Assembly: GCA_017416535.1 (NCBI GenBank)
Contig: JAFQCG010000005.1
Location: 141,708 to 205,707, forward strand
Origin: Bacilli bacterium
GTDB lineage: Bacteria > Bacillota_I > Bacilli_A > RF39 > UBA660
Direction of reading: 5' to 3'
DNA: 64,000 nucleotides
The position numbers were made by a program, and so were the translations under genes. This document shows, one piece after another, positions 1 through 63,982 of the stretch (position 1 is the stretch's first letter; the number at the start of each line of letters is the position of its first letter). The notes below the pieces were generated by a model. It saw nothing but the letters and a program-made list of their open reading frames with translations. It searched no databases and was not told the DNA's origin.

Positions 1-723
1 TATTCCTTTTTGTGTACCTACTCTTATAAATACAAATTCTACTCCGGCGTTTTTTACTTGTTCAAAATTAATATCTCCTTGCCACTTTGAAACATCCAAG
101 CCTATTTTTGTATTTTCTGTTTTATGTTTCTTTACTATATCAGAGAAGTTTTGATAAGTTGGTGGAGTTGGTGATCCTGAACCACTACCTTTGACAATTA
201 AATCGAATTCATTTTCTGATTTATTATTTGAGGAATCAGTACCTATAAATTTTAATTTATATGTTCCAGGTTTATTTCCATCATATGTACCTTCTATCTC
301 ACATTTTGGTTTGTCATCATAGTTATCTCCACAAAATAATTCTTTTGCAAGATTACTGTTGTATCCTTTTTGAACAGATAATGATTTTGATGAGAAGATT
401 ACCGGTGGAACTTGATCTACTATTTCTATTTCAAAGGAATAAGACACATCAATATTATCATCATTTGTATAGTTAAATGTAATTGGTTTTACTCCTACTT
501 TTGTTGTATTTATTTTGTAATCATCTTCTAATTTACCGTTAATTGATTTAATAAGATCTGATAGTTTTATTTCTGAAAAGACATCTATTTTTAAATTATC
601 TTGAAGTTCAACAATTATTTTAGCATTTGCAATTCTCCATTTATTATAAATAAATATTCCACCTGTTGTTAGGAGAATTACCGTAATTATAATTGTAATT
701 ATAATAATTATTTTCTTCTTCAT
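1..723 (-). CDS. GH25 family muramidase (lysozyme) with N-terminal TM anchor and DUF5011-like Ig domain; partial, C-terminus runs off the window start
   Basis: ATG at 721-723 on minus. Translation MKKKIIIIITIIIT...DQVPPVIFSSKS...GLDVSKWQGDINFEQVKNAGVEFVFIRVG matches the GH25 N-terminal signature (DVSxWQG.IDW..VK..G..F..I). Not in the ORF track because it has no stop within the window. Confidence 0.7.
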   Translation of the reverse strand, partial: MKKKIIIIITIIITVILLTTGGIFIYNKWRIANAKIIVELQDNLKIDVFSEIKLSDLIKSINGKLEDDYKINTTKVGVKPITFNYTNDDNIDVSYSFEIEIVDQVPPVIFSSKSLSVQKGYNSNLAKELFCGDNYDDKPKCEIEGTYDGNKPGTYKLKFIGTDSSNNKSENEFDLIVKGSGSGSPTPPTYQNFSDIVKKHKTENTKIGLDVSKWQGDINFEQVKNAGVEFVFIRVGTQKGI

Positions 724-764
724 AAGACACCAAAGAAGAATAAATAGTTATTCTTCCCTTTCTT

Positions 765-2591
765 TTATTTATCTAGTTTTTTCCATAGTATTGTTAGTAC
801 ATTTAAAATACATAAGAATGTAACTCCAACGTCTGCGAATACTGCCATCCAAATTGTACTTAATCCTAATGCTCCTAGTATTAGTACAACTAATTTTACT
901 AGTAATGCAAATACTATTGTTTGAATTACTTTTTTCTTTGTTATGTTAGAAATTATTATTGCTGTTTTTATTTTTGATAAGTCATCTTTCATGATAACTA
1001 CATCACTTGCTTCTATTGCAGCATCTGAACCTACTTGTCCCATTGAAACTCCAATATCAGATATCTTTAGAACTGGTGCATCATTTACTCCATCACCTGC
1101 AAATAATACTTTTCCATTTTTCTTATATTCTTTTACTTTATCTACTTTATCTTCTGGCAACATTTCTGCATAATAAGTATTTATTCCTACTTTTTTAGCA
1201 ACTTTTTGAACTACTGATTCAATATCACCAGATATAATTATTAATTCTTTTTTAATGTATTTTAGAAGTTCTGTAATACGTAGACTACTCTTTTTAATCT
1301 TATCAGATATAACTAAGTATCCAGCATATTCTTTATCAATTGCGACATGAATAACTGTTCCTGTTTCAGAAATAGGTAGTGTCATTACTTTGTTTTCTTT
1401 CATTAACATTTCATTTCCTACTAATATTTTTTTACCTTTTACTTCACAAGAAATTCCTTTACCACTCATATCTTTATATTTTTCTGCTTCTAATAATTTT
1501 TCTTCATTTTTTTCTTTAATAGCAAGTGCTATTGGATGAAGTGAATATTGTTCAGCAGATGCTGCTAGTTGTAAGAACTTATTTTCTTTCATTGCAACTG
1601 GGAACACTTTTGTTACTTCAAATACTCCTTCTGTGATTGTTCCAGTTTTATCTAATACTACATAATCTAGGCTTTGTAGATTTTCTAATTCTTTACTACC
1701 TTTAATTAGTATACCTTCTTTACTAGCACGTCCAATTCCACAGAAATATGCAAGTGGAATTGATATTACTAATGCACAAGGACATGATGTTACTAAAAAT
1801 ACTAATGCTCTATAGAACCATACTTTAAATTTTTGTCCAAATAGTACAGGTATTACTGTTAATAGAATCGCAGATATTATAACTATTGGTGTATATACTT
1901 TAGAAAACTTTGTAATAAATTTTTCTGTGTCTGCTTTTTTTGATGGAGATTTTTCTATTATTTCTAGAATTCTTGCTGCTGTTGATGTTTTATATGTAGA
2001 AGTTGCTTTTATTGTTAGTACTCCTTCTTTATTAATACATCCACTTAATACTTTATCATCTTTATTTACACTTCTTGGTTTTGACTCTCCAGTTAATGAT
2101 GATGTATCTAAATGAGATTCTCCTTCAATTACTACTCCATCTAATGGAATCTTTTCTCCTGGTTTTACAAGTAATATGTCATTTTCCTCTACATCTTTTA
2201 CTTTTACTTCTACAATCTCATTATCTACTAAAAGATTTGCTGTATCTACTCTTAAATCCATTAATTTTGTAATTGATTTTTTACTATTATGTACAGCTAA
2301 ATGTGAGAAATATTCTCCTACTTGGAATAATAACATTACCATTACAGCTTCTTCATTATTAGCAATTGCGAAAGCACATAATGTTGCGATAATCATTAGA
2401 AGATTCTCATTAAAGAAAATTTTCTTTTTAATATGATTATAAGCATTAATATAAATTCCTGTACTTATAATTGCATATGAGGTTGCAAGAAAAGCTAATT
2501 TAATTTCATTTTCTTCTATAAATAATGAAGATATAAATAGTACAATACTGATTAATATTTTTATTAAATCTTCATTAAAAAACTTTTTCAT
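765..2591 (-). CDS. heavy-metal translocating P1B-type ATPase (Cd/Zn/Co type), no N-terminal HMA domain
   Basis: SCPCAL (CPC transmembrane metal site), DKTGTIT phosphorylation motif and GDGVNDAP hinge; 608 aa. Confidence 0.85.
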   Translation of the reverse strand: MKKFFNEDLIKILISIVLFISSLFIEENEIKLAFLATSYAIISTGIYINAYNHIKKKIFFNENLLMIIATLCAFAIANNEEAVMVMLLFQVGEYFSHLAVHNSKKSITKLMDLRVDTANLLVDNEIVEVKVKDVEENDILLVKPGEKIPLDGVVIEGESHLDTSSLTGESKPRSVNKDDKVLSGCINKEGVLTIKATSTYKTSTAARILEIIEKSPSKKADTEKFITKFSKVYTPIVIISAILLTVIPVLFGQKFKVWFYRALVFLVTSCPCALVISIPLAYFCGIGRASKEGILIKGSKELENLQSLDYVVLDKTGTITEGVFEVTKVFPVAMKENKFLQLAASAEQYSLHPIALAIKEKNEEKLLEAEKYKDMSGKGISCEVKGKKILVGNEMLMKENKVMTLPISETGTVIHVAIDKEYAGYLVISDKIKKSSLRITELLKYIKKELIIISGDIESVVQKVAKKVGINTYYAEMLPEDKVDKVKEYKKNGKVLFAGDGVNDAPVLKISDIGVSMGQVGSDAAIEASDVVIMKDDLSKIKTAIIISNITKKKVIQTIVFALLVKLVVLILGALGLSTIWMAVFADVGVTFLCILNVLTILWKKLDK

Positions 2592-2605
2592 ATACTACCT
2601 CCATT

Positions 2606-4270
2606 TTATTCATCTTTAATAAATTTTTCTATATCTTCAGTGTTTGAATATACTGTTAATCCTGAAATTGAATATGAGTTTATTCCAGCTTCTTGTGTCA
2701 TAAATACTCCTGGAATTATATCCCATGGTTTTGTTGTTGATAACACAAGAGTATTTGTTCTTCCTGTTAAAAGATTTGAGAAAGCAAAGCAACATGCATT
2801 AATATGCATAAAGTTTGCTGGACGAACTGGATTGTTTAGTAATTTTTCAAATATAGTTTTCTTTTCTTCAAATTTCTTATGACATGAACCACAGAATTCA
2901 ATTGTACTTTGATTTAGTGGAACTTTGTTTCCTAAATCAATTCTTTTATGATTTAAGTATGCACCCTTACCTTTTATGGCATAGAACATTTCATCTAATT
3001 TTGGTAAGTACATTATTGAGAATTGAATTTCTCCATTATCTACAAATGCAAGTTGTATTCCCCAGAAAATTGATTTTTTCATATAATGAGCTGTTCCATC
3101 AATTGGGTCAATTATCCAAGTTCTATTTTGAATTGTATTTTCATTATTAAATTCTTCTGTTACAAAGTTATCATCTGGAAAACTATCTCTAATATGATCA
3201 ATTAGTAATTTTTCAACAATTAAGTCTGATTCTGTTACAAATGTTGAATCTTCTTTTTCTCTAAAAGTGATTTTTACTAAATTCTTTTTATTAATTGTTG
3301 ATGTTGCATCTTCAATTGCATTGTAAGCTAAATCAAATTCTCTTGAATAGTCATGATTATCAAGATAGTAATTCATCATATATTTTTCTAGTTCTTCTTC
3401 ATATGGCATTCCATCTTGAGCACCTTTTATTCTGATTTTCATACTAGACGCATATTGAGCTTTTACTACTGACTCATATAATGTAAATCCTTTGATTAAA
3501 GCAGCTGCAAAGTTACCATTAAATGTATCTCCTGCTCCTGTTGTGTCTTCTACCTTATCAACTTCTATTGCTGGTATTTTTACAATTTTTTCTCCATCAT
3601 GATAAGCTACTCCATCTGGTCCTAATGTAACGATTAATTTATTAGGATATTTTTCTAGACATGATTCAATATCTGTTGTTTCAAATATTATTTCACATTC
3701 TTTTTTATTTGCAGTTATATATGTAATTTTATCAATTAATTCTTTGTTTCCTGGTTCTGATATTGCTAACCTTTGTGGTCTACATGGAGTAAGTACTAGT
3801 GGAATGTTATTGTCATAACAGAAGTTAATTAATTCTACACTTACTTCTTTTGGTACTTTTAATTGAGCTATTACCATTTTTGATTGTAAGAAGACTTTTT
3901 TATATCTTTCAATCATTTCTGGTGTAAAACTATCTATTGCTCCAGCAAATCTTTCAATATCATTATCTTTTGTCTTTTCATCAATTACAATTTTTGCATA
4001 GTCATTACTTAGTCCATCAATTACTTCAATATTATTTGTTGTAATGTTATTGTATACTAGGTTTTCTAAAATTCTTTGTCCTATTGAGTCTTTTCCTAAT
4101 CTACTTACCATTGTTACTTTTGCTCCAGCACGTGCTGCAGCAACTGCTTGGTTTGATCCTTTTCCTCCTGGTAAAACTAGTGATGGACATTCTGGTATTT
4201 CACCTTTTTCGTTTTTATAATAGAATTGGTCTAAAGCACATCCTCCAAAGACACAAATGTCATACTTCAT
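2606..4270 (-). CDS. bifunctional fusion: PfkB/ribokinase-family sugar kinase (N-terminus) plus inositol-monophosphatase-family phosphatase (C-terminus)
   Basis: N-terminal GGKGSNQAVAAARAG and DTTGAGDTFNG (PfkB signatures 1 and 2). C-terminal FVTEE...WIIDPIDGT...KPWDIIPG (IMPase metal-binding motifs). Single 554-aa ORF. Confidence 0.75.
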   Translation of the reverse strand: MKYDICVFGGCALDQFYYKNEKGEIPECPSLVLPGGKGSNQAVAAARAGAKVTMVSRLGKDSIGQRILENLVYNNITTNNIEVIDGLSNDYAKIVIDEKTKDNDIERFAGAIDSFTPEMIERYKKVFLQSKMVIAQLKVPKEVSVELINFCYDNNIPLVLTPCRPQRLAISEPGNKELIDKITYITANKKECEIIFETTDIESCLEKYPNKLIVTLGPDGVAYHDGEKIVKIPAIEVDKVEDTTGAGDTFNGNFAAALIKGFTLYESVVKAQYASSMKIRIKGAQDGMPYEEELEKYMMNYYLDNHDYSREFDLAYNAIEDATSTINKKNLVKITFREKEDSTFVTESDLIVEKLLIDHIRDSFPDDNFVTEEFNNENTIQNRTWIIDPIDGTAHYMKKSIFWGIQLAFVDNGEIQFSIMYLPKLDEMFYAIKGKGAYLNHKRIDLGNKVPLNQSTIEFCGSCHKKFEEKKTIFEKLLNNPVRPANFMHINACCFAFSNLLTGRTNTLVLSTTKPWDIIPGVFMTQEAGINSYSISGLTVYSNTEDIEKFIKDE

Positions 4271-4341
4271 TATGTTCGCCTACCTTCTTACATTTTTCAT
4301 AATAATTATAACAGAAAAATTTATAAAACAGAATATACTTT

Positions 4342-5298
4342 TTAATTTAATAAAAAGTTCATTATTAAGTCGATAATAATTTTCTTTTCTTTAGGATTAC
4401 TTTCTGCAATTAGTAGAGTTAATGCTACTAAGGTGTTATTATCTATAACCTGTTTATTATCTATATATAATATATTATAAAATTGTAGAAAATATATAAA
4501 TAGTGTTGCAGCTATTCGTTTATTTCCATCTATAAAAACATGATTTTTTACTATCATATATAGAAAGTTTGCTGCTTTTTCTTCTGTTGAATTATATACT
4601 TCTTTATTATCATAAGTTTGATATATATTATTTATTATTGATTCTAGTCCATTATTTCTTTCCAATGCAAATAATTTGCTTTCTTCATTAAATCGAAGCT
4701 TTTTAATTATATCCATACAATTTCTATATGTTATTTTTTTAGTACTTGATTTTCCTTTTACTTTTGTTAATGTATGATGGTCATAATCGTCTAAAATATC
4801 TAATGCTTTTGAATAGTTACCTATTACTTTTAAAATTTCTTTAGCATCATTATTTTCTAGTCTTTCATCCATTCTATTAGCAATATCAATTAGTTTTACT
4901 GTTTTTTCTAAGTAATCTAATCTTTGCTTATTTACTGCATATCCTTTTAACATATAGTCTTTTAATACTTTTGTTGCCCATTTTCTAAATGCTACTCCTT
5001 GTGTTGAATTTACTCTATATCCAACACTTATAATCATATCTAAGTTATAATATTCAACCATATGCATCTGAGTTTTTCCTTTAATTGCACCGTGGTCAGT
5101 GGTGTTCGCAAATTTTGCGACAACCACTTCATTACTTAATTCCTCTTTAAGTGCATTATTTATATGCTTTCTTATTGTTTTAAAATCTCTATTAAATAAT
5201 TGAGACATTTGTTGTGTATTAAGCCACACAGTTTCATCTTGCATATTTACTTCTAGTTTTACATTTTGATCTTCAAATAATATTATTTCATTTTTCAT
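4342..5298 (-). CDS. RhuM-family protein with C-terminal Fic/Doc domain
   Basis: N-terminal region is RhuM-like (VWLNTQQMSQLF...TIRKHI). C-terminal HVFIDGNKRIAATL fits the Doc/Fic core HxFx(D/E)GNKR. RBS GAAGGAGAT upstream. Confidence 0.7.
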   Translation of the reverse strand: MKNEIILFEDQNVKLEVNMQDETVWLNTQQMSQLFNRDFKTIRKHINNALKEELSNEVVVAKFANTTDHGAIKGKTQMHMVEYYNLDMIISVGYRVNSTQGVAFRKWATKVLKDYMLKGYAVNKQRLDYLEKTVKLIDIANRMDERLENNDAKEILKVIGNYSKALDILDDYDHHTLTKVKGKSSTKKITYRNCMDIIKKLRFNEESKLFALERNNGLESIINNIYQTYDNKEVYNSTEEKAANFLYMIVKNHVFIDGNKRIAATLFIYFLQFYNILYIDNKQVIDNNTLVALTLLIAESNPKEKKIIIDLIMNFLLN

Positions 5299-5528: not shown

Positions 5529-5777
5529 CTATTTTACTTTCACTTCTTCTAATGCTTTTGCTAGTTGATCTCCACATGAGGTTTTTTTAAATCCACATGT
5601 AATTCCATTTAATCTTTCAATTACTTTATCCACTTCTTGTCCTTCTACTAGTGATGAAATTGCTTTTAAATTACCATTACATCCACCTGTATATTTAACA
5701 TTATGTACTTTATCATTTTCAATATCAAATTCTATTTGAGTTGAACAAGTTCCTTTTGTTTTATAAGTGTAATGCAT
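5529..5777 (-). CDS. TSCPD-domain protein (TIGR03905-like small Cys-rich protein)
   Basis: 82 aa with GGCNGN and KKTSCGDQLAKAL motifs typical of the TSCPD domain. Overlaps the femAB-like gene by 17 nt, suggesting coupling. Confidence 0.55.
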   Translation of the reverse strand: MHYTYKTKGTCSTQIEFDIENDKVHNVKYTGGCNGNLKAISSLVEGQEVDKVIERLNGITCGFKKTSCGDQLAKALEEVKVK

Positions 5778-6999
5778 ACTTTACCTCCTTTAGTTTATGT
5801 AGAAGTTTAAATATATAATAGTTTATATTTACTGGTAGTTCATGTTCTCCAATTAGTTCTTCCACATAACCATTAAATCCTTTTTTAAATTCATATATTC
5901 CATAATTATCTGGATGTTCATTTATGTTTTCCGGTATTCCATAAAAATTATGTTTTTTAAAACCATTTTTTATTCCATATTTTATTAATTCCCATTGAAT
6001 TAAGTATTGTGAATTAAATTTCATATATTCCTCATAGTTTCCACTTGATAAATATATTACTTCTGGTTTAATTAACATAAACATTGATCCTGATAAGGTT
6101 ATTATATCATTATTTGTTTTATTTCTAATACTATTTGCTTCACTTATTTTATTTTCTAAGGATTTTATTTCTTTTAATAGTTCTTCTTTTCTAGTTATCT
6201 TTATATTTTTATTTTGTAATTTCTGTTCTTTTTCTTTCTTTTCAGTATATAATTTTTCGACATATTCTTTTAAATTAAGTTCTGTAATAAAGTATTTAAC
6301 TTCATTTTTATCATGAAATATATTATACATATCTTCATAATATTCTTTTTCTCTTGTTGTGAAGTTTCTTCTTATACCTGTTTCTTTTAATATATTATTA
6401 AATATAGGTAATTCCTCATATGATAATTCTTTTACTTTAATACCTATTTTCTCTGCTTTTTTTATAATGTTTCTTGTATTTTGTTTCATTTCTTTTAAAA
6501 TATCTTCTTCTGTTTTTCCTTCTAAATTTAGTGAAAACATCCAAGTTACTTGTTCATTTTCTTTTATTGATTTCTTTTTAAATCCTTGGTCTTTTAAAAA
6601 GTCTAATACATCTTTATTATCAATTCCATCTTTTACAACATCTCCATTTATATCTCTTTCCTTATTAATAACATAAGGATCTATTCTTAATACATAACCA
6701 TTTTTCTTTTTTATATATTCTATAGTATTTGTGATAAAAAAAGACAATAATTCCTTATTGTTGTAGTCGATTAGAAATCCTCGAGGACTATAAAATTCAT
6801 AATTATTTAAGAATCTTTTTTTACTTAATAACATTGCCGATGCGATTATTTCTTCATTATTTTTTACGCCTATATAATTTACTTTCCAACCTTTTTTACT
6901 TCTTAATTTTGCTATTTCTGGTGATGATAAAAATGTTTTTAAAGGATGATTATTCCAATGACTTTTATATTCTTCTTCTGTTAGATCAAAAAATTCCAT
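5761..6999 (-). CDS. FemAB-family peptidoglycan interpeptide-bridge aminoacyltransferase (FemA/FemB/MurM-like)
   Basis: NYIGVKNNEEIIASAMLL, RIDPYV, EELPIF, coiled-coil insert and YNFYG align closely with S. aureus FemA. Confidence 0.85.
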   Translation of the reverse strand: MEFFDLTEEEYKSHWNNHPLKTFLSSPEIAKLRSKKGWKVNYIGVKNNEEIIASAMLLSKKRFLNNYEFYSPRGFLIDYNNKELLSFFITNTIEYIKKKNGYVLRIDPYVINKERDINGDVVKDGIDNKDVLDFLKDQGFKKKSIKENEQVTWMFSLNLEGKTEEDILKEMKQNTRNIIKKAEKIGIKVKELSYEELPIFNNILKETGIRRNFTTREKEYYEDMYNIFHDKNEVKYFITELNLKEYVEKLYTEKKEKEQKLQNKNIKITRKEELLKEIKSLENKISEANSIRNKTNNDIITLSGSMFMLIKPEVIYLSSGNYEEYMKFNSQYLIQWELIKYGIKNGFKKHNFYGIPENINEHPDNYGIYEFKKGFNGYVEELIGEHELPVNINYYIFKLLHKLKEVKYALHL

Positions 7000-7041
7000 A
7001 TATTCCTCCTTTTAGTAGTATATGAGGATATATGGAATTTA

Positions 7042-7719
7042 TTATTCTTTATTTTTCTTTTTCATTTTATCTAATTTTTTTTGTATTTTTGTGACAAATT
7101 TATCTTTATCAAAGATTGTAAATATAAATAAGGCAATTACTACAAATAATAAGATTAATGTAATAAATAATATTATACTAAAGTAATCTTGTTTTTCTTT
7201 TGTTGTGTCTAAATAACTATTTGTAAGGTATGTCTCGAAATTATCTTCTGTAATAGCTATTTCATTTTCAGTTGGGACAAAATCATTTATTTTCTTTATT
7301 GCTATATTTTTTAAATCAGCTTTTATTATTTCTGGATAACCATATACTTTTTTTGCTTTTGGTTCTTCTTTTGTTCTTTCATAAGTATAGTCTATTATAT
7401 CTTTATACTTATCATAATCATCTTCATTTATAGCAATTAAATATGTATGCCATACACCTGTCTCTTCTTTTTCAATAACAAAATGAATACCTATATTTTC
7501 TTCTTCGTAGTAAGCAAACATTTCTGACATTTTAGATACTTTTATGTATGAATATTCATCAACACTTTCTACTTCTCCCCATGGTTTAGCATCGTACTTT
7601 TCTATAAATAATTTATATGAACATACAAATAATATTGTAATTACTATAAAATAAACTATACATAATACTAATTTTATTGTAAGTTTTTTTTCTGTTTTTG
7701 TTTTATTTACCTTCTTCAT
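7042..7719 (-). CDS. hypothetical membrane protein with N- and C-terminal TM segments
   Basis: ORF with TM helices at both ends; no recognisable motif. Confidence 0.4.
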   Translation of the reverse strand: MKKVNKTKTEKKLTIKLVLCIVYFIVITILFVCSYKLFIEKYDAKPWGEVESVDEYSYIKVSKMSEMFAYYEEENIGIHFVIEKEETGVWHTYLIAINEDDYDKYKDIIDYTYERTKEEPKAKKVYGYPEIIKADLKNIAIKKINDFVPTENEIAITEDNFETYLTNSYLDTTKEKQDYFSIILFITLILLFVVIALFIFTIFDKDKFVTKIQKKLDKMKKKNKE

Positions 7720-7781
7720 TTACAACTACCTCTTATTCTACTTAATATAATATCATATTTTGTAAAAAAAAAGAAATTTTG

Positions 7782-8609
7782 TTAATCTCTTTTTACTTTA
7801 GGTATCAATTTTTCTAATAATTTATATTTATCTCTATTTATTACATAGAGATATCCAAATATTGAGAAGACTATTGCACCAATGAAATTTACAAATAAAT
7901 CTTTCATCGTATCAATAACACCTAACTCTAGGTATCCATCTTCGATTACTATTTGTTCTTTATCTTTTGTATAAATAATTGTTTTTTCTATATCATCTAT
8001 TACTTTTACTTTATTTTCTTCTTTTTCATTTAATTCTACAGAAGATACAACGTCTACTACTCTATCTTTTTGCATATCAAATAGGAAATATCTATCTGCG
8101 GCAAATTCAAAGAATTCCCACATAACGCCTACAGTCATTGAGAAGCAGAATGCTACTAGAGATAAAAATAATGGAGATAATTTAATTTTAAATCTTTCCT
8201 CTCTATTAATAATATCAATTAATGAGAATCCTACTGCTGCGCATAGGAATCCATTTAAAGTATGTAGTAATGTATCCCATGTTTTAAATATTCCATAGAA
8301 ATTTTGAATTTCTCCTAATATTTCAGCTGCGAATATAAACAAATATACTATTATTTCTAATGTAGATGGAAAGTCTATTTTAAGTTTATTTTCTATTAAA
8401 GTCGGAACAGTAAACATTACTAAAGTAAGTATGCATAAAAATACATTTTCCCAGTTACCGTGCATTGCTTGCGCAACCATACATACGATTACTAATAAAC
8501 GTAATGTTAAATATACTGTAATAGTAGATTTTTCTTTTCCCTCTAATAACTTTTTAGTAAAACTTTTCTTTTTGTTTTTTTTCATATTACTCAAAATTTT
8601 CCTCTTCAA
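7782..8609 (-). CDS. polytopic membrane protein, possibly YjdF/DUF2238-like
   Basis: 5-6 predicted TM helices and a WEFFEFAADRYF motif; family assignment is tentative. Confidence 0.4.
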   Translation of the reverse strand: MKRKILSNMKKNKKKSFTKKLLEGKEKSTITVYLTLRLLVIVCMVAQAMHGNWENVFLCILTLVMFTVPTLIENKLKIDFPSTLEIIVYLFIFAAEILGEIQNFYGIFKTWDTLLHTLNGFLCAAVGFSLIDIINREERFKIKLSPLFLSLVAFCFSMTVGVMWEFFEFAADRYFLFDMQKDRVVDVVSSVELNEKEENKVKVIDDIEKTIIYTKDKEQIVIEDGYLELGVIDTMKDLFVNFIGAIVFSIFGYLYVINRDKYKLLEKLIPKVKRD

Positions 8610-9519
8610 ATAATTTTTTAATATTTTTCTTAGGCATTAACATTTTCATATCTTTTTCTACTCTGAACTTGTACTTATGGACTGGGCTAGTATATTCTTC
8701 TCCATCAATACACCATGATGTTTTTGGGGAATCTAAAAACTCAAGTTCTAAATCATTAGTTTTATAATAAGTTATTCCTGGAATATCTTTAATATCTACT
8801 GCATTCATTAAGATGAACATTCTTACAATATCTCGATAATTTTTTACATCCGCAAAGGCTACTTCAAATTTATTATCGTCTAATTTAACGTCGTAATAAA
8901 TATCTGATACACCTGCTACACGTGATGAATTTGTGATAAAGAAGAATGAATATTTCCCTTCATGTTCTTTACCATTTACTTTATATTTTATGTTATAAGA
9001 ATGAATTTTAGGTCTTAATTGTTTTAATCCATATAAAATATAAGCTAGTTTTCCATACTTTTTCTTTAATTCACGCGGTGTATTATATGCCATATCAATG
9101 TAGTCTCCTAAACAAGCTACATATACAAATGCTTTATCGTCAATATAACAAACATCTATTTTCTTTGGCTTTCCATTTAATAGAATTTCTAGATTTTGCT
9201 TAATATCTTTAGTATAACCATACATGTTTCCTACATCATTTGTTGTACCTAATGGTAGATTTGCAAGTAATAGTTTGTGTTTTCTTAACATATTACCAGT
9301 TACTACTTCATTTAGTGTTCCATCTCCACCTGCACTAATTACTAAGTCAATATTTCTATCTAGTTCTTGTACAATTTCAATAGCATGACCTTTTCTTTTC
9401 GTAAAGATTATTTCTGTTTCATAACCATATTTTCTTAGAGTGTCATAAAATATATTATAATTTTTTAATTTCTTCTTTTTTCCGCTTTCTGGATTCATGA
9501 TAATTACACATTTTCTCAT
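8587..9519 (-). CDS. diacylglycerol-kinase catalytic-domain family lipid kinase (YegS/DgkB-like)
   Basis: IIMNPESGKKK and ISAGGDGTLNEV (DAGK_cat motifs). Likely start is ATG 9519 (MRKCVII, RBS GAGGGGA); the ORF track extends to 9552. Confidence 0.8.
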   Translation of the reverse strand: MRKCVIIMNPESGKKKKLKNYNIFYDTLRKYGYETEIIFTKRKGHAIEIVQELDRNIDLVISAGGDGTLNEVVTGNMLRKHKLLLANLPLGTTNDVGNMYGYTKDIKQNLEILLNGKPKKIDVCYIDDKAFVYVACLGDYIDMAYNTPRELKKKYGKLAYILYGLKQLRPKIHSYNIKYKVNGKEHEGKYSFFFITNSSRVAGVSDIYYDVKLDDNKFEVAFADVKNYRDIVRMFILMNAVDIKDIPGITYYKTNDLELEFLDSPKTSWCIDGEEYTSPVHKYKFRVEKDMKMLMPKKNIKKLFEEENFE

Positions 9520-10854: not shown

Positions 10855-10885
10855 CAAATAAAAAACACCATTTGGTGTTTTATAG
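10855..10885 (-). terminator. terminator (AACACCA..TGGTGTT plus U-run) after the ABC exporter genes; palindromic and possibly bidirectional
   Basis: Stem followed by T-runs on both strands immediately after the permease stop at 10880. Confidence 0.6.
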
Positions 10886-11653
10886 TTCTTCTACGAAGCT
10901 TTTTTCTAATTTTTTGAAAATTATATATCCTAATACTACTATTACTATACTTCCAAATCCCCAGATAGCTAACATCGTCATATCTGGTAGTTGATGATAG
11001 TATAGAACAGATCTATATGCTTCTACTAATTGTGCCATTGGATTTATCTTTAAGAATATTTGGAATTTTTGTGGTAACATGCTACTTAAATATACTATTG
11101 GTGTAGCATAGAATCCTAACATTAATACAACACTTACAAAGTGTGATACGTCACGTACAAACACTGTAACTGCTGATAAAACAAAAGATAATCCTAATGT
11201 TATTAAGTATTGAATTAATACTAATAATGGGAAGAATATTATATGCCATGAGAATCCTACTCCACTAAATATAATAAATACTACCATTATTAAACAAGTA
11301 ATTAAGAAATTTATTAATTGACTTGTTGTTGTAGAGATTGGAATAATTTCTCTTGGGAAATATACTTTCTTTAAAATATTACCTTCAATTACTACACTAT
11401 TTGTTCCTGTTTGAACTGCTGTTGTAAAGAAGTTCCAAGGAATAAGTGCTACAATCATGAAGATTGTATAATTATCAACATCTACTCTTAAGATGTATGG
11501 GAAAACAAATGCATATACTGCTAACATTAATAGTGGATTAAGGAATGTCCAAAGGATTCCTAACCATGACCCTTTATATTTTCCTCTAATTTCTTTTTTA
11601 ATGTTTGTTTTTAGTAACTCTCTATAATTGTATAACTCTTTAAAAACATTCAT
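10880..11653 (-). CDS. ABC-2 type polysaccharide/teichoic-acid exporter permease (Wzm/TagG/KpsM family)
   Basis: 6-TM ABC-2 permease. Likely start is MNVFKELYNY at 11653, 6 nt after the ATPase stop; the ORF-track start at 11737 overlaps the ATPase. Confidence 0.8.
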   Translation of the reverse strand: MNVFKELYNYRELLKTNIKKEIRGKYKGSWLGILWTFLNPLLMLAVYAFVFPYILRVDVDNYTIFMIVALIPWNFFTTAVQTGTNSVVIEGNILKKVYFPREIIPISTTTSQLINFLITCLIMVVFIIFSGVGFSWHIIFFPLLVLIQYLITLGLSFVLSAVTVFVRDVSHFVSVVLMLGFYATPIVYLSSMLPQKFQIFLKINPMAQLVEAYRSVLYYHQLPDMTMLAIWGFGSIVIVVLGYIIFKKLEKSFVEEL

Positions 11654-11658
11654 TCTAA

Positions 11659-12402
11659 TCACCCACAAACCTTTAAGTATTCTTTCAGAACGTCTTTTAC
11701 TTCTCCATCCATTCTGATTTGTCCTTGATATAGCCATACTGCTCTATCGCAGAATTCTTCTACTTGTTTCATATTATGAGTTACTATTACAATTGTTTTT
11801 CCTGATTTTTTTAGTTCTCTTAATTTATTAAAACATTTTTCTTGGAAATGTTGATCTCCTACGGCTAGAATTTCATCAATTAAAAGTATTTCTGCTTGTA
11901 CATTAATCGCTATTGAGAAAGCAAGTCTCATATACATTCCTGATGAATATGTTCTTACTGGATTATCAATAAAATCTCCTAGTTCAGAGAAGTTAATTAT
12001 TTCATCAATTTTTTCATCTATTTCTTTTCTTGTTAGTCCAAAGATAGATGCATTAAAATAAATATTTTCTCTTCCTGTAAAATCATTATGGAATCCTGCA
12101 CCTAACTCTAGTAATGATGTTAATTTACCGTAAGTGTGAATTTTTCCTTTTGTAGGATAAATGATTTTAGTCATTAATTTTAATAATGTTGACTTACCAG
12201 ATCCATTCGTACCAATAAGAGCAACACTTTCACCTTTTTTAATATCTAAACTGATATCTTTTAATACGTGGTGAATATCATTTTTATCTCTATTCTTTTT
12301 AGAAAAAAATAATAATTTTTCTTTTAATGTATTTGCTTTATCATAATAAAGTTTGAAGTCTTTTGATACATGATTAACTTCAATTGCTGTATTTTTTTCC
12401 AC
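11659..12402 (-). CDS. ABC exporter ATP-binding protein (Wzt/TagH/KpsT type, short form)
   Basis: Walker A GTNGSGKST, signature YSSGMYMRLAF, Walker B LLIDEILAVGD. Confidence 0.85.
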   Translation of the reverse strand: MEKNTAIEVNHVSKDFKLYYDKANTLKEKLLFFSKKNRDKNDIHHVLKDISLDIKKGESVALIGTNGSGKSTLLKLMTKIIYPTKGKIHTYGKLTSLLELGAGFHNDFTGRENIYFNASIFGLTRKEIDEKIDEIINFSELGDFIDNPVRTYSSGMYMRLAFSIAINVQAEILLIDEILAVGDQHFQEKCFNKLRELKKSGKTIVIVTHNMKQVEEFCDRAVWLYQGQIRMDGEVKDVLKEYLKVCG

Positions 12403-14808: not shown

Positions 14809-16050
14809 TTATCTACTAAATATTGATTTTATTTTTCTTATTATTCTTCTAAATAAATTTATTACATATCTATATGCTTTAATTGGCCATTTACTATTAA
14901 TTCTATATATTTCTTTTGTATATCTATTAGTTGTATTAAATATATATTTATAATCACTTGTGTAATTACATTCTAGTTTATCTTTATATAGGTTATTATC
15001 AACATTATACTTTTTATTAATAAATTTATAATTATCTTCTGTAATTGATTTATATTTTTTCTTGTCTATTTTTAATAAATCTTGTAATACATTTTCATTG
15101 TCTTTTAGATTCATTCCTGAGAAGTTTTGATTACTTGCTAGTTCAATATTATTTTTGTTAACTATATTCATTGTACCTGTATAGCTACTTATAATTGATA
15201 ATCTTTTACAAGCAAGTGCTTCTAGAATACATCTATCAACTCCTATAAAAACATCTATATTTTTATAGTATTCTGGCATATTTGATACATTGCCAAGAAA
15301 TTCTACTTTGTCTTTTAATTTCTTAGAATCTACATATCTCATTATGGTTTTCTTTTCTTGTCCATCACCAGCTATTAATAGTTTTGCATTATCATTTTCT
15401 TTTATGTACTCAGCAAATAGGTCTATTCCTTTTTCTACTGATAAGACTTTTTCTTCTGATAGTCTTGCAGCTATTCCAAATATTTCTAACTTACTAGGTA
15501 TTTCTCCATCAGGGAAATCTTCCATATTTAGTGAGTTTGGAATTATTAAATATTTATCTTCTCCTAGATGATAGATATCTTCAATTTCTTGTTTTGTACT
15601 TTCGGCAATGCATACTATTTTTGATGCATTTTCAAAAAAGATTGGTAGTGCTAGTTGATATGTTGGAAATTCTTTATTAAACCATTCAATTGCTCCAGGA
15701 ACAATTGAGTGAGCATATGCTACATATGGTATATCTAATTCCATACATACTGGCAGCCAATACATTATACATGGATATTGGTGCATATGAATTTCTGATA
15801 TTTTATTTTCTTTGCAGAACTCCATTAATTCTTTCTTTTTATCTATTCTAAAATAATTTCTTATTTTATGTTCCATTCTTAATACTTTAACACCAATTTT
15901 TTCTAATTCCTTGGCATACATTCCATCTTTAGCTGCGACAAAAACATTATGACCTGCTCTTACATATCCTTTACAAAGTGTAACAACAGCAGTTTCAACT
16001 CCACCTACTCCTAAGAACTCTAAACACATTAAAATATTTCTTTTCTTCAT
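14809..16050 (-). CDS. glycosyltransferase family 4 (GT-B)
   Basis: LEFLGVGGVETAVVTLCKGYVRAGHNVFV N-terminus, plus a C-terminal GT4 fold. Confidence 0.75.
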   Translation of the reverse strand: MKKRNILMCLEFLGVGGVETAVVTLCKGYVRAGHNVFVAAKDGMYAKELEKIGVKVLRMEHKIRNYFRIDKKKELMEFCKENKISEIHMHQYPCIMYWLPVCMELDIPYVAYAHSIVPGAIEWFNKEFPTYQLALPIFFENASKIVCIAESTKQEIEDIYHLGEDKYLIIPNSLNMEDFPDGEIPSKLEIFGIAARLSEEKVLSVEKGIDLFAEYIKENDNAKLLIAGDGQEKKTIMRYVDSKKLKDKVEFLGNVSNMPEYYKNIDVFIGVDRCILEALACKRLSIISSYTGTMNIVNKNNIELASNQNFSGMNLKDNENVLQDLLKIDKKKYKSITEDNYKFINKKYNVDNNLYKDKLECNYTSDYKYIFNTTNRYTKEIYRINSKWPIKAYRYVINLFRRIIRKIKSIFSR

Positions 16051-16174
16051 ATTATCACATCTTTTCTATTCGTAATATTTAACTATTTAGTGTCTATATT
16101 TAAATTATATAATATTTTGAATACCTTGTAAACCTTGGGGAAAATTAAAAAGACTATAGAATATATCTATAATC

Positions 16175-17134
16175 TTATTTACTACCTCTTATTTTTCTAT
16201 AAATATAGCAGTATGTTTTTGTGATAAACTTATTCTTTTCTATAATACGTTTTAAGAAACTTCTATTTTCAAAATACTTATTATCTTTATAGTTTGGAAC
16301 TTCTTCTTTAAGATATTTAAATGCATTATCGATAAACTCCATACCTACTTTAATATCCTTCTGATTTCTTTGTTGTATATTATAGTTTGTAATTATTCTT
16401 ACAGTTAATTTATCTACTACCTCAGACATATATTTTTTATTCTTATAATATGTTCTTACCATATCTACTATTTTTAAAATATCAAATATCCTTTTATCTC
16501 TTACTGTAGTTTCACTATTACCATGAATTACATAGTAATTTAATTTCTTATCTAGCTTAGCAATTTTATTTGCTTTATCTAGTGCTTCAGATACGAATGG
16601 TACATCTTCATATTTTATGCCTTCTGCAAAAGATATATTATTATCTTTAATTAATTTAGTACTATATATTTTATTCCATGGTGATAAATTTATATCAATT
16701 AAAATATTTGGATTATCTTTTAATTTAGATGTCTTAAAACTTGGTAAGTTTATATCTTCTTTTGTTCCATCATCATATACTTTGTAGAAATCACATACTA
16801 CAACATCGGCTTTTTCTTCTTTTGCTTTATTGTATAAATCTTCACATGCAGTTGGTTCTATATAATCATCACTATCAATAAAGATAATATATTTCCCGGT
16901 TGCTTTTTCTATACCAAAGTTTCTAGTTTTACCAATTCCTTGATTTTTATTTTTAAAATATTTTATTCTTTTATCCTTATAAGATTTTAAGATATCATGT
17001 GTTTTATCTGTTGAACCATCATTTATTAAGATAAATTCTAATTCTTTTTTAGTTTGATTTAATAAAGAATCTACACATTTTTTTATATACTTTTCTGCAT
17101 TATATATTGGAACAATTATACTTATATCTGCCAT
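16175..17134 (-). CDS. glycosyltransferase family 2
   Basis: ISIIVPIYNAEKYIKKCVDSLLNQT...ILINDGSTDKT...DSDD. Confidence 0.8.
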   Translation of the reverse strand: MADISIIVPIYNAEKYIKKCVDSLLNQTKKELEFILINDGSTDKTHDILKSYKDKRIKYFKNKNQGIGKTRNFGIEKATGKYIIFIDSDDYIEPTACEDLYNKAKEEKADVVVCDFYKVYDDGTKEDINLPSFKTSKLKDNPNILIDINLSPWNKIYSTKLIKDNNISFAEGIKYEDVPFVSEALDKANKIAKLDKKLNYYVIHGNSETTVRDKRIFDILKIVDMVRTYYKNKKYMSEVVDKLTVRIITNYNIQQRNQKDIKVGMEFIDNAFKYLKEEVPNYKDNKYFENRSFLKRIIEKNKFITKTYCYIYRKIRGSK

Positions 17135-61942: not shown

Positions 61943-62767
61943 TTAATATCCTTCTTTTAATCCAGCACTATCATAGAATAAACTTCTTCCACCTTCTTGA
62001 TATTTTTTAGTATATCTAAAGTAGACAAAAATAGGTTTTCCGGTAGAAGTTATATACACGTAATTATCACATGTACAACGATCTTGATCAGCCATCTTTT
62101 TTGTTAACATAAATTCATCATCAAATTCATTAACAATATCTTTGTAGTTTATAAAGTTATCTTTTGTATACTCATTTACTTGCATCATTGATATAAATCC
62201 AACCTGATTTATTTGAGTATCATTTAAACTTTCTAAGAAATTAATTACTTCTTTTTTACTATCAATATAATCTTTTATTAGTAAACAATTTATTCGTAAG
62301 TCCGCTTTGCTCTTTAGTTGTTTTATTTTATCAAGTGTGATTGTTTTAGTTTGAAATACTTCATTATTTTTTTCATCTAAATAATGATGTCTACTTAATT
62401 GAATTGATTCAATTGGATACTTATTTAACATTGGAAGTGTTTTTTCTAATAATATACCATTGGTATTAAGTGTAATTCTGGGATCGTATTTTTTTAGTAG
62501 TTTTAATAAATCTTCCAAGTTTTCACAGTTTAGTAGAGTTTCTCCTCCGCTAATTGAAAATCTGCTTATTTTTTTATGTACTATGTCTATTATACTTTCC
62601 AACTCATTTAGATCTAATTTTCCAAAGTTCTTATTACATTCATTTGAACAAAATTTACATTTGGCATTACAAATATTTGTTACATTAATATAAAATGGAA
62701 ATTCATTACATGGTGAACATGCATATTCTTTTATATTATATTTTTTACCATTAACATCTAATTCCAC
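61943..62767 (-). CDS. radical SAM enzyme (small, 274 aa, no SPASM domain)
   Basis: CX3CX2C NICNAKCKFC, SISGGETLL (GGE motif). GTG start preceded by TAGGAAAT. Overlaps the 3' end of the repeat-peptide gene by 17 nt. Confidence 0.75.
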   Translation of the reverse strand: MELDVNGKKYNIKEYACSPCNEFPFYINVTNICNAKCKFCSNECNKNFGKLDLNELESIIDIVHKKISRFSISGGETLLNCENLEDLLKLLKKYDPRITLNTNGILLEKTLPMLNKYPIESIQLSRHHYLDEKNNEVFQTKTITLDKIKQLKSKADLRINCLLIKDYIDSKKEVINFLESLNDTQINQVGFISMMQVNEYTKDNFINYKDIVNEFDDEFMLTKKMADQDRCTCDNYVYITSTGKPIFVYFRYTKKYQEGGRSLFYDSAGLKEGY

Positions 62768-63188
62768 TTTGATTTCCTACTTCTTTATTTATTGGTAAAA
62801 TCATTTTTGAATAAGGTTTCTTACTTGAGAATGAGCTTCCACATGACGGATGTCCTCCAATGTTTCTATTATTTGAACTTCCACATGAAGGATGTCCTCC
62901 TCCATATCCCCAACCGCGACTCGAACCACAAGATGGGTGTCCTCCTCCATATCCATAATCATCATTTGATGTTCCACATGATGGATGTGCCATCATTGTA
63001 ATTTGATCACTTTCTTGAAAATAATTTTCATTAATTTCATATCCATGTTTTCTTAATGCTTTATTAAACACCTCTCTTGATTGTGGTGTTGCGAATAGGA
63101 ACGGACATAAATTTCCTAAATCTTCAACCGATTGAACTGGATTTTCTGAACGTCTAAATATTTTTTCAATTAATTGTTCTTGTTTCAT
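62751..63188 (-). CDS. 145-aa peptide with four tandem G-G-H-P-S-C-G-[ST]-S repeats; candidate radical-SAM-modified precursor or metal-binding repeat protein
   Basis: RBS GGAGGGAAAC before ATG 63188. About 67-aa N-terminal region, then AHPSCGTS...GGGHPSCGSS...GGGHPSCGSS...GGHPSCGSS, and a C-terminal Cys. DNA shows 4 copies of CCACATGA(A/T)GGATGTCC on plus. Confidence 0.6.
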   Translation of the reverse strand: MKQEQLIEKIFRRSENPVQSVEDLGNLCPFLFATPQSREVFNKALRKHGYEINENYFQESDQITMMAHPSCGTSNDDYGYGGGHPSCGSSRGWGYGGGHPSCGSSNNRNIGGHPSCGSSFSSKKPYSKMILPINKEVGNQSGIRC

Positions 63189-63212
63189 AAGTTTCCCTCC
63201 TGCTTTTATAAT

Positions 63213-63249
63213 AACACAAAAACTGATAAAAACAAAATGTTTTTATCAG
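63213..63249 (-). terminator. terminator (CTGATAAAAAC..GTTTTTATCAG plus U-run) separating the upstream membrane-protein gene from the repeat-peptide/rSAM unit
   Basis: 11-bp perfect stem with 4-nt loop, followed on minus by TTTTTGTGTT. Confidence 0.6.
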
Positions 63250-63265
63250 TTTGTTATAATTTTAT

Positions 63266-63982
63266 TTATTCGACTGTTTTATCTTCAATTATTGTATCGC
63301 AATATTCACATCTTACCTTGCTTCCTCTGTTAACATCATTGATTGCTCCACAATTTTCACATCTAATTGATATAAAGTCTTTTTCTTTTTTTGTCTTTTC
63401 TACTGTATAATATAAAATTTCTTTATCAACCTCATTAAGCTTGATACCATTAATTAAATCTTTATCATATAAATTTTTTAAGTCGTTAAACACTTTTTCT
63501 TTATATTTATCTAAATTTTTAATAGATGCACCTGGCATTCTAGCTGCCATTTCTTTTATAGTTAGGTGATTTTGATAGATAAATGGTTTGTATTTAATTA
63601 ATAATTCATTATCTTCTGGGCTACATGGTAGTAACATTCCATTAATGTGATCTATATGCAAATCACCAATTTGTCTTTTATTTTTTAAATATCTTATTTT
63701 TAAAATACATTCATCGTATGAACATCCTGCTTTTGCGGCAATCTTTTTAATATCTTTTTTCTTTTCAACTACGATTGCTTGATAAATTATGTTCATTTTC
63801 TTTTCAAATAATATATCTGCAGGAATAGAATGTTCATAAAACTTGGCATATCTTTGATATGACTCTTCATTTATGTTTTCACTATTTTTCAGATTGTTAT
63901 ATTTCTTTTTTACTTTGATTCTATTATCTATTGAAATTATTACTATTATTAAAATTAAAGCAATTATAAATACATTTTCCAT
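63266..63982 (-). CDS. membrane-anchored protein with C-terminal zinc-ribbon (CxxC...CxxC)
   Basis: N-terminal TM FIIALILIIVIISI; C-terminal CENCGAINDVNRGSKVRCEYCDT. Confidence 0.45.
   Translation of the reverse strand: MENVFIIALILIIVIISIDNRIKVKKKYNNLKNSENINEESYQRYAKFYEHSIPADILFEKKMNIIYQAIVVEKKKDIKKIAAKAGCSYDECILKIRYLKNKRQIGDLHIDHINGMLLPCSPEDNELLIKYKPFIYQNHLTIKEMAARMPGASIKNLDKYKEKVFNDLKNLYDKDLINGIKLNEVDKEILYYTVEKTKKEKDFISIRCENCGAINDVNRGSKVRCEYCDTIIEDKTVE

Follow-up and report, generated by a model that had tools for sequence, protein, structure and literature searches.

The DNA analyzed here is a 64-kb stretch (hereafter, the window; 26.7% G+C over its whole length) from a Bacilli bacterium, and its minus strand carries a gene that encodes a PfkB-family sugar kinase and a phosphatase of the inositol monophosphatase (IMPase) family in a single polypeptide. 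The coding sequence (CDS) of this fusion has an ATG start, which is preceded by the Shine-Dalgarno-like GAAGGTAGG, and extends over 554 codons and a stop codon with zero internal stops. An earlier note on the same DNA had described one uninterrupted open reading frame (ORF) between positions 2606 and 4270; the coordinates and the unbroken frame were borne out, and the strand, on which the note was silent, is the minus strand. The gene and its domains are arranged in the window as follows.

2606..4270, minus strand: complete kinase-phosphatase CDS of 554 amino acids, with the stop codon at 2606-2608 included.
3371..4270, minus strand: PfkB ribokinase-like kinase domain, residues 1-300, with matches to PF00294, 1gqt, and 9a6b_A.
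3341..3370, minus strand: interdomain junction, residues 301-310, flanked in the AlphaFold2 model by helices 291-302 and 309-329 (predicted local distance difference test score, pLDDT, of 84-94 over this block).
2609..3340, minus strand: IMPase-family phosphatase domain, residues 311-554, with matches to PF00459 and to 2p3n (E 2e-25).

Both domains named in the earlier note are confirmed by Pfam profiles: PF00294 (PfkB) covers residues 4-289 (E 2.6e-46, 158.8 bits against a gathering cut-off of 25.8), and PF00459 (Inositol_P) covers residues 314-531 (E 8.4e-35, 121 bits against a gathering cut-off of 27). The five motifs quoted in that note are all found within the residue ranges that it gave, namely GGKGSNQAVAAARAG at residues 35-49, DTTGAGDTFNG at 242-252, FVTEE at 369-373, WIIDPIDGT at 385-393, and KPWDIIPG at 514-521. 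The AlphaFold2 model, which was built with 34 homologues, has a mean pLDDT of 91 and a predicted template modelling score of 0.84 with no disordered break between the halves, and is consistent with two domains held in a fixed arrangement.

In a search of 5.8 billion proteins we identified more than 120 clusters of full-length two-domain homologues (548-578 amino acids, 50-99% identical), nearly all of which come from gut and rumen metagenomes. Since these homologues are also spread over many independent contigs, neither sequencing nor assembly error accounts for the fusion. A single-protein query of the genome collection returned only three close relatives, and the nearest genome records are metagenome-assembled genomes (MAGs) labelled "Bacilli bacterium" from the colon of goat and water deer. 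The earlier note knew of no characterized enzyme with this architecture and had considered that the fusion might prove to be both common and already annotated with a defined activity; the architecture recurs in at least 145 sequence clusters of gut and rumen metagenomes, and its NCBI-named members are annotated as "hypothetical protein". Full-text literature searches aimed at the fusion brought up no publication that describes it or a comparable bacterial module, and neither PDB sequence searches nor Foldseek searches found a solved structure that spans both halves. In the PDB fold search, the N-terminal half matched ribokinases only and there was no two-domain match.

The kinase half is most similar to ribokinases. 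Its top PDB sequence match is the E. coli ribokinase (1gqt), its top fold match is B. subtilis RbsK (9a6b_A, 38% identity), and its best family model is the ribokinase model TIGR02152, for which it scores 210.4 bits against an equivalog cut-off of 299.65. The scores also remain under the cut-offs of a second ribokinase model (NF008353, 150 bits against 341) and of the ATP- and ADP-dependent ribose-1-phosphate kinase models (NF053626, 54.7 bits against 330; NF041134, 52.8 bits against 500). The PfkB signature motifs GG-K-G-x-N-Q (residues 35-41) and DT-x-GAGD with the catalytic Asp (residues 242-248) are present, and the catalytic set D14, G36, K37, N40, and GAGD with D248 is invariant among 34 homologues of 50-88% identity. 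In E. coli ribokinase, ribose is hydrogen-bonded by N14, D16, G42, K43, N46, E143, and D255, and the lid residues A98, I100, and I110 pack on the 2'/3' hydrogens of the sugar (PMC9604405).

We compared these positions by using the alignment with 1gqt, the 34-sequence family alignment, and a survey of signature residues in 305 kinase domains, in which 146 fusion sequences were counted. The contacts D16, G42, K43, N46, D255, I100, and I110 are kept, and the A98 position is occupied by Ser or Ala. The ligand set is incomplete: Glu143, which is Glu in 77 of 77 canonical ribokinases, is replaced by Lys in all 146 fusions, and residue 12, taken as the N14 equivalent from the comparison of GSINAD with GGCALD, is Ser or Ala. 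The Ile112 position, which is V, I, Y or L in the 77 canonical ribokinases, is Arg in 145 of the 146 fusions and in 58 of 65 stand-alone relatives that belong to the same clade. The NPAP motif of canonical ribokinases is changed to TPCRP, with Arg in 144/146 fusions versus Pro in 72/77 canonical proteins, and two further clade-wide changes convert Asn117 to Ile and T95/G96 to N/D; nearly all of the 77 canonical ribokinases keep the hydrophobic residue, Asn, (T/S)G, and NPAP at these positions. Thus, the Lys/Arg pair defines a separate kinase clade. The corresponding sites in the window are listed below.

4148..4168, minus strand: GGKGSNQ motif, residues 35-41, invariant or nearly so in the 34 homologues; in the 1gqt alignment, G36, K37, and N40 pair with G42, K43, and N46, which bind ribose in the E. 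coli enzyme.
3950..3952, minus strand: Arg107 in the lid strand, the clade signature that replaces Ile112 (survey of kinase domains).
3857..3859, minus strand: Lys138, the clade signature that replaces the ribose-binding Glu143 (1gqt alignment and survey; ligand according to PMC9604405).
3779..3781, minus strand: Arg164 in TPCRP, the third cationic signature residue (survey of kinase domains).
3527..3538, minus strand: GAGD anion hole and catalytic base, residues 245-248, invariant; D248 aligns with E. coli D255, the catalytic base of ribokinase (PMC9604405).

The part of the pocket that binds the ring therefore appears to be preserved, and the part that faces C1 is predicted to have gained three cationic side chains (Lys138, Arg107, and Arg164). 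The numbering N14/D16/D256 also applies to E. coli pseudouridine kinase, in which residues 97, 114, 143, 166, 167, and 170 bind the C1' substituent (PMC9247573); by residue number, the clade signature positions would fall at or beside these contacts. In Pfk-2, another PfkB-family phosphosugar kinase, lid arginines bind the phosphates of the substrate or product (PMC6429617). We considered an equivalence of Arg107 with Pfk-2 Arg105 and rejected it, as the two residues are two positions apart on the same strand in the alignment, and Pfk-2 serves as a precedent only. Because the ring contacts are kept, the C1 side is cationic, and the lid arginines of Pfk-2 bind phosphate, we propose that the kinase half accepts a ribofuranose with an anionic group at C1. 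Even if the substrate proves to be different, the Lys138/Arg107 signature provides a simple rule for separating this clade from true ribokinases.

The top PDB sequence match of the phosphatase half is the IMPase of Thermotoga maritima (2p3n). All metal ligands expected of an IMPase are present (the Glu of (F/I)xxEE, DPxDG(T/S), and the Asp of WD), and E372, DPIDGT, and WD match the corresponding residues in the alignments with 2p3n and SuhB. Residues D349, E372, D388, D391, T393, and W516-D517 are invariant in the 34 homologues. The main sites of this half are as follows.

3155..3157, minus strand: Glu372 in FVTEE, a putative metal and water ligand, invariant, which we take to correspond to Glu70 of human IMPase.
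3092..3109, minus strand: DPIDGT metal motif, residues 388-393, with D388, P389, D391, G392, and T393 invariant and I390 at least 90% conserved.
2720..2725, minus strand: Trp516-Asp517 (WD motif), invariant and aligned to 2p3n and SuhB, with Asp as a putative metal ligand (Asp220 of human IMPase).

By these residues the phosphatase half looks active, and the earlier note's reading of complete active-site cores holds for both halves, in which the catalytic residues appear intact. The scores of the phosphatase half are below the cut-offs of the family models for HisN (TIGR02067, 113.7 bits against 275.15), SuhB-type IMPase (NF008027, 81 against 332), CysQ (TIGR01331, 77.1 against 228.8), and bifunctional FBPase/IMPase (NF009321, 60 against 264). 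It has WDxxPG where WDxAAG is usual and an invariant Asn491, at a site that is presumably Gly-Thr in human IMPase.

The IMPase fold of the C-terminal half speaks for an inositol or polyol kinase-phosphatase, as the earlier note had suggested, and some PfkB proteins are myo-inositol kinases. That suggestion fits poorly with a kinase that is a ribokinase derivative, 38% identical to the B. subtilis enzyme, with the ribose-ring contacts and the ribose-specific lid kept. Moreover, there are no inositol genes nearby in any of the lineages examined, and a kinase and a phosphatase that act on the same position would be futile; we regard this explanation as scarcely credible.

The relationship between the two activities is best seen from the other arrangements of the Lys/Arg kinase clade, which came to light when 1.84 billion cluster representatives were searched exhaustively with HMMER and in follow-up searches. 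Both fused and split gene pairs, the comparison that the earlier note had called for, occur among the relatives. In a MAG from Oscillospiraceae (L107), a kinase gene (7001-7924) whose product is 60% identical to the window kinase half overlaps the start of an IMPase gene (7905-8663), and the product of the latter (P0134) is a stand-alone IMPase with 48% identity to the window phosphatase half. The same order of kinase and IMPase genes is found in a second locus (L109). In other relatives the phosphatase is of a different fold: the clade kinase is fused to a PHP-fold domain in three proteins of 603-616 amino acids (P0124, P0133, and P0137), and in a Clostridiales MAG (L103) the clade kinase gene overlaps a stand-alone PHP gene. 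As a control, hidden Markov models of the IMPase and PHP partners were run against all loci, both those with the Lys/Arg signature and canonical Glu-type loci, the latter being generic ribokinases from a metagenome scan with a shared ANQAVAA motif among its search patterns. A partner is fused or adjacent in 27 of 33 Lys/Arg loci, many of which are near-duplicates, and within 7 kb of none of the 77 canonical Glu-type ribokinase loci. Counted by distinct lineage, the Lys/Arg loci comprise about 10 fused, three adjacent, and four with neither arrangement.

The swap of the phosphatase fold and the stop/start overlap of the split genes constitute the strongest evidence that the kinase and the phosphatase serve one pathway. 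Together with the absence of partners at canonical loci, they lend independent support to the earlier note's view that the halves are functionally coupled, a coupling that the gene arrangements make well supported. The alternative, that an ordinary ribokinase shares its chain, but no intermediate, with a housekeeping phosphatase (IMPase-, HisN- or SuhB-like), draws on the best models of the two halves (ribokinase with 210 bits and histidinol-phosphatase with 114 bits) and on the lack of a conserved pathway neighbourhood. However, both scores are under the equivalog cut-offs (299.65 and 275.15 bits), another residue stands in place of the ribose ligand Glu143 in the whole clade, and the link to a phosphatase recurs with a non-homologous fold and with overlapping split genes and is absent at the 77 canonical loci. 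In addition, one of the fusion-bearing lineages (L015) has a second, separate PfkB gene near the fusion. Two unrelated activities are quite improbable. In L015, that second PfkB gene (10881-11777) is of ordinary length (298 amino acids) and is located three genes downstream of the fusion; thus, the fusion is not the sole PfkB-family kinase in that genome.

A histidinol-phosphatase reading, in which HisN would represent the IMPase fold and HisK the PHP fold, was rejected, since the PHP partner is of the COG0613 type (RNase RNM, bisphosphate phosphatase) and not of the HisK type. The best models of the PHP partner, within the COG0613 group, are those of RNase RNM (95 bits) and 3',5'-nucleoside bisphosphate phosphatase (NF041577, 91 bits), and the phosphoribosyl-1,2-cyclic-phosphate diphosphodiesterase model gives 37 bits; all three scores are below the cut-offs, and among solved structures those nearest to the PHP partner are 9etk, 2yb1, and 7ug9. 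By family name, the second and third of these models describe enzymes that act on ribose groups with a 5-phosphate and a second phosphate. These matches also bear on a nucleotide end-swap, in which the kinase would convert a 3'-(or 2'-)nucleoside monophosphate (NMP) into a nucleoside 3',5'-bisphosphate and the phosphatase would remove the 3'-phosphate, so that RNase-derived 3'-NMP would be salvaged as 5'-NMP. Both partner folds include 3',5'-bisphosphate nucleotidases, with 77 bits for CysQ of the IMPase family in the fusion and 91 bits for NF041577 (PHP/COG0613) in the PHP partner; however, none of these family scores comes near its curated cut-off. Furthermore, the O2'/O3' ligands of ribokinase (Asp14, Lys37, and Asn40) are unchanged, an aspartate beside a 3'-phosphate would be unfavourable, and the clade-specific changes are located around C1 and not around C3. 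We consider the end-swap rather unlikely.

Several atypical members of the family were observed along with these arrangements. A full-length relative with 38% identity (P0122, 566 amino acids) keeps the kinase motifs and Lys138 and has INAVDNVT in place of DPIDGT, so its IMPase half may be a dead phosphatase domain. In P0154 (523 amino acids) the order is reversed, a good N-terminal IMPase domain being followed by a PfkB domain without the GAGD motif, and this protein looks like an independent fusion with a degenerate kinase. The locus L022 (2672-3841) encodes a clade kinase whose reading frame runs on for only about 70 more residues, similar to the beginning of the IMPase half, before a stop, with no ORF of at least 60 amino acids in the next 750 nt; this locus may hold a copy of the fusion that has decayed or is chimeric.

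The genomic neighbourhood of the fusion differs from lineage to lineage. The seven fusion-bearing lineages have seven different neighbourhoods with no conserved operon partner, the fusion gene being set among housekeeping genes and in no catabolic operon. The inositol or ribose utilization genes that the earlier note had envisaged as neighbours are not conserved across these lineages, and the recurring neighbours (P-type ATPase, PMT_2 glycosyltransferase, NUDIX, and mechanosensitive channel genes) are too inconsistent to be used. A pyrimidine-nucleoside phosphorylase gene is located 3-6 kb from the fusion in two lineages (L004 and L013), deoC is 4 kb away in L109, and the cytidine deaminase gene cdd is nearby in L101, a weak hint at nucleoside catabolism.

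Other neighbours would suit a kinase whose substrate is a nucleoside with an acidic base (nicotinate riboside or orotidine, for example); the phosphatase would then serve as a nucleotidase for some related compound. A PnuC-type transporter gene is two genes downstream in L011, and a stand-alone clade member precedes pyrB-pyrI in L023; the remodelled pocket also corresponds to the base pocket of pseudouridine kinase. Each of these context clues was seen once, however, and the recurrent pairing with two kinds of phosphatase and with a phosphomutase would be left unexplained, which makes such a substrate very improbable. The L023 kinase (652-3091 together with the genes that follow it; 342 amino acids, with the Lys/Arg signature) is located directly upstream of the pyrB-/pyrI-like ORFs, which were named by eye, and no phosphatase gene is found in the 8.6 kb of this locus. 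An odd genetic code, considered for L023 as ORFs seemed to be absent downstream, was ruled out, since one long ORF runs off the contig end.

Taken together, these observations suggest a mechanism in which both halves act in turn on one small ribose phosphate. In the first step, the kinase half would grip the furanose ring and phosphorylate the 5-hydroxyl with Asp248 as the base. Its substrate would be a ribose with an anionic C1 group, of which alpha-D-ribose-1-phosphate, formed by nucleoside phosphorylases, is the best candidate, and the product of the step would be ribose-1,5-bisphosphate. In the second step, the IMPase-family half would hydrolyze the C1 phosphate by metal-dependent monoester hydrolysis and release ribose-5-phosphate. 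The net reaction, ribose-1-phosphate + ATP + H2O -> ribose-5-phosphate + ADP + Pi, would make the protein an irreversible ATP-driven equivalent of phosphopentomutase.

The 5-hydroxyl chemistry of the kinase and the metal-dependent hydrolysis by the phosphatase are expected because of family membership, whereas the identity of the substrate, the phosphate that leaves, and the physiological role are what we infer. Ribokinase binds the alpha-furanose form of ribose, and some IMPase-family enzymes hydrolyze anomeric sugar 1-phosphates, as does L-galactose-1-phosphate phosphatase. The route from ribose-1-phosphate is favoured because the remodelled pocket would face C1, because the alpha-furanose form matches alpha-D-ribose-1-phosphate, and because archaeal PfkB proteins annotated as ribokinases are proven ribose-1-phosphate kinases (PMC9700705). 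We judge it quite probable that one phosphorylated ribose compound is handled by both halves in succession; the specific conversion of ribose-1-phosphate via ribose-1,5-bisphosphate to ribose-5-phosphate by the fusion protein is put forward tentatively, with a chance somewhat short of even.

A stand-alone clade kinase located 16 nt upstream of a PGM/PMM-family mutase in L101 points to another use of the same chemistry. Enzymes of the PGM/PMM family require a sugar bisphosphate activator, and the kinase could make ribose-1,5-bisphosphate (or hexose-1,6-bisphosphate) that primes phosphomutases, and the fused phosphatase could break it down; in this way the protein would control how much of a regulatory bisphosphate is present, in the manner of PFK-2/FBPase-2 and fructose-2,6-bisphosphate. 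The position of the fusion among housekeeping genes, outside catabolic operons, would agree with such control of a cofactor, and the L101 mutase has the TASHNP loop. However, this is the single mutase adjacency seen, and opposing activities without an evident regulatory domain would run a futile cycle. As the chemistry equals that of the ribose-1-phosphate route, the sequence evidence does not tell the two apart, and we judge control of a bisphosphate cofactor to be unlikely. The L101 mutase (7970-9385) carries TASHNP as its phosphoserine loop and GAESNG as the likely sugar-binding loop, which we take to differ from the loops of GlmM, PMM, and PGM; its best model is the archaeal-type GlmM (270 bits, below the 439-bit cut-off), and it could be a pentose mutase.

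Several observations weigh against the ribose-1-phosphate route. The archaeal ribose-1-phosphate kinase models give only 53-55 bits, compared with 210 bits for ribokinase, so that a shared function would be convergent. The proposed location of Lys138, Arg107, and Arg164 near C1 is drawn from alignment and from the published structures of relatives. The IMPase half is nearest to the generic IMPase and HisN models and to no bisphosphatase, and certain clade kinases are solitary, with no phosphatase gene in their vicinity (L105 and L023). Context says little on the pathway, because no operon partner is conserved in the seven lineages, and an ATP-consuming bypass would be hard to rationalize if deoB is present in the host.

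With these points in mind, the ribose-1-phosphate route can be extended, more tentatively again, to an unrecognized two-step conversion of nucleoside-derived ribose-1-phosphate to ribose-5-phosphate in gut Firmicutes. A new bacterial clade of PfkB-family ribose-1-phosphate 5-kinases would act with a 1-phosphatase dedicated to this route, which would have been drawn at least twice from unrelated folds (IMPase and PHP) and joined repeatedly to the kinase, and the pair would replace or supplement phosphopentomutase at the cost of one ATP. The folds are known, and the clade and the combination are new; the reaction of the fusion protein is probably new as well. If the proposal is true, it adds a step to the way in which abundant uncultured bacteria of the gut and rumen metabolize pentoses and nucleosides and provides the first bacterial ribose-1-phosphate kinase and the first dedicated ribose-1,5-bisphosphate phosphatase, and the labels "ribokinase" and "hypothetical protein" of the clade would be corrected. 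In textbook enzyme families, an unannotated combination is found in which a distinct clade with a rebuilt specificity pocket recruits phosphatases of two unrelated folds.

In the window itself, the fusion gene is preceded by a gene of the RhuM/Fic family (4342-5298, minus strand), and the next gene downstream encodes a P-type ATPase and starts 14 nt past the fusion stop with its own ribosome-binding site. A strong terminator-like hairpin is located farther upstream, at 5411-5381, and because of this position the fusion gene may be cotranscribed with the preceding Fic/RhuM gene and the following ATPase gene. One further feature was recorded upstream of the CDS.

4299..4327, minus strand: promoter-like hexamer pair TTTATA-17-TATTAT in the 71-nt gap upstream of the CDS, as weak evidence only.

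The count of promoter-like hexamer pairs in this region equals the shuffle expectation and gives no evidence of function. A similar RhuM/Fic gene (15578-16516) is located about 6 kb from the fusion in the 68%-identical lineage L004, and its presence near the fusion in two lineages may reflect a synteny remnant or a mobile element.

No nucleoside or pentose genes were found in the rest of the 64-kb window, whose translations were read by eye and of which nine ORFs were checked against Pfam; its other contents, also read by eye, include cell-wall and teichoic-acid genes, gatCAB, ligA, pcrA, sortase, and similar genes. A long run of ORFs at 9600-32800 resembles cell-envelope genes by eye, with glycosyltransferases, a TagG/TagH-like ABC transporter, an LCP-family protein, an LtaS-like sulfatase-domain protein, and a large repeat-bearing surface protein. 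Upstream of this run is a FemAB gene (5761-6999) confirmed by Pfam, and the organism is therefore walled, despite its low G+C content and probably small genome. At the other end of the window, within 61943-63982 on the minus strand, a 238-aa ORF without a Pfam match is followed by a 145-aa ORF (62751-63188), also without a Pfam match, which has four GGHPSCG(S/T)S copies in its C-terminal half. The end of the latter overlaps the start of a radical-SAM gene (61943-62767; PF04055, CxxxCxxC), and the two look like a precursor peptide with its maturase.

Among known systems, ribokinase RbsK (EC 2.7.1.15; E. coli 1RKD and the B. subtilis enzyme) has its fold and ATP site in common with the fusion kinase half, whereas the fusion has Lys for Glu143, Arg for Ile112, a score below the equivalog cut-off, and an attached phosphatase. 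The archaeal PfkB-family ribose-1-phosphate kinases of the pentose bisphosphate pathways, ADP-dependent in Thermococcales and ATP-dependent in haloarchaea, convert ribose-1-phosphate to ribose-1,5-bisphosphate, which is the first step proposed here (PMC9700705). In archaea, however, the bisphosphate is not hydrolyzed directly but passes to an isomerase and then to Rubisco or to a HAD-family ribulose-bisphosphate phosphatase; in the halophile pathway a phosphatase acts later than the kinase (PMC9700705), and no fusion is known. The IMPases (TM1415 2p3n, SuhB, HisN, and CysQ) share the fold and metal motifs of the phosphatase half; unlike them, the fusion scores under every equivalog cut-off, contains WDxxPG and Asn491, and carries a kinase. 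The COG0613 PHP phosphoesterases (Cv1693 2yb1, RNase AM 7ug9, and PhnPP) take the place of the IMPase as partner of this kinase clade in relatives, but they are absent from the window, differ in fold from the IMPase half, and are matched by that partner with scores far below the cut-offs.

The logic of phosphate relocation proposed here resembles that of HldE/HldA with GmhB in ADP-heptose synthesis, in which a PfkB-family kinase and then a phosphatase convert heptose 7-phosphate via the 1,7-bisphosphate to the 1-phosphate; that system differs in its sugar, in its HAD phosphatase, and in the fusion of its kinase to a nucleotidyltransferase. Kinase and phosphatase for the same compound are joined on one chain in MJ0917, a fusion of NAD kinase and an NADP phosphatase of the IMPase fold, and in the eukaryotic kinase-phosphatase fusion PFK-2/FBPase-2. 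Their kinase folds (NAD kinase and P-loop, respectively) are unrelated to the PfkB fold, and they carry out regulatory interconversion, not phosphate relocation. The fold combination and probable substrate of the fusion described here match none of HldE/GmhB, MJ0917, and PFK-2/FBPase-2. The proposed net conversion is that of phosphopentomutase DeoB, which also proceeds via the 1,5-bisphosphate; DeoB differs in having an unrelated alkaline-phosphatase fold and in being reversible without ATP.

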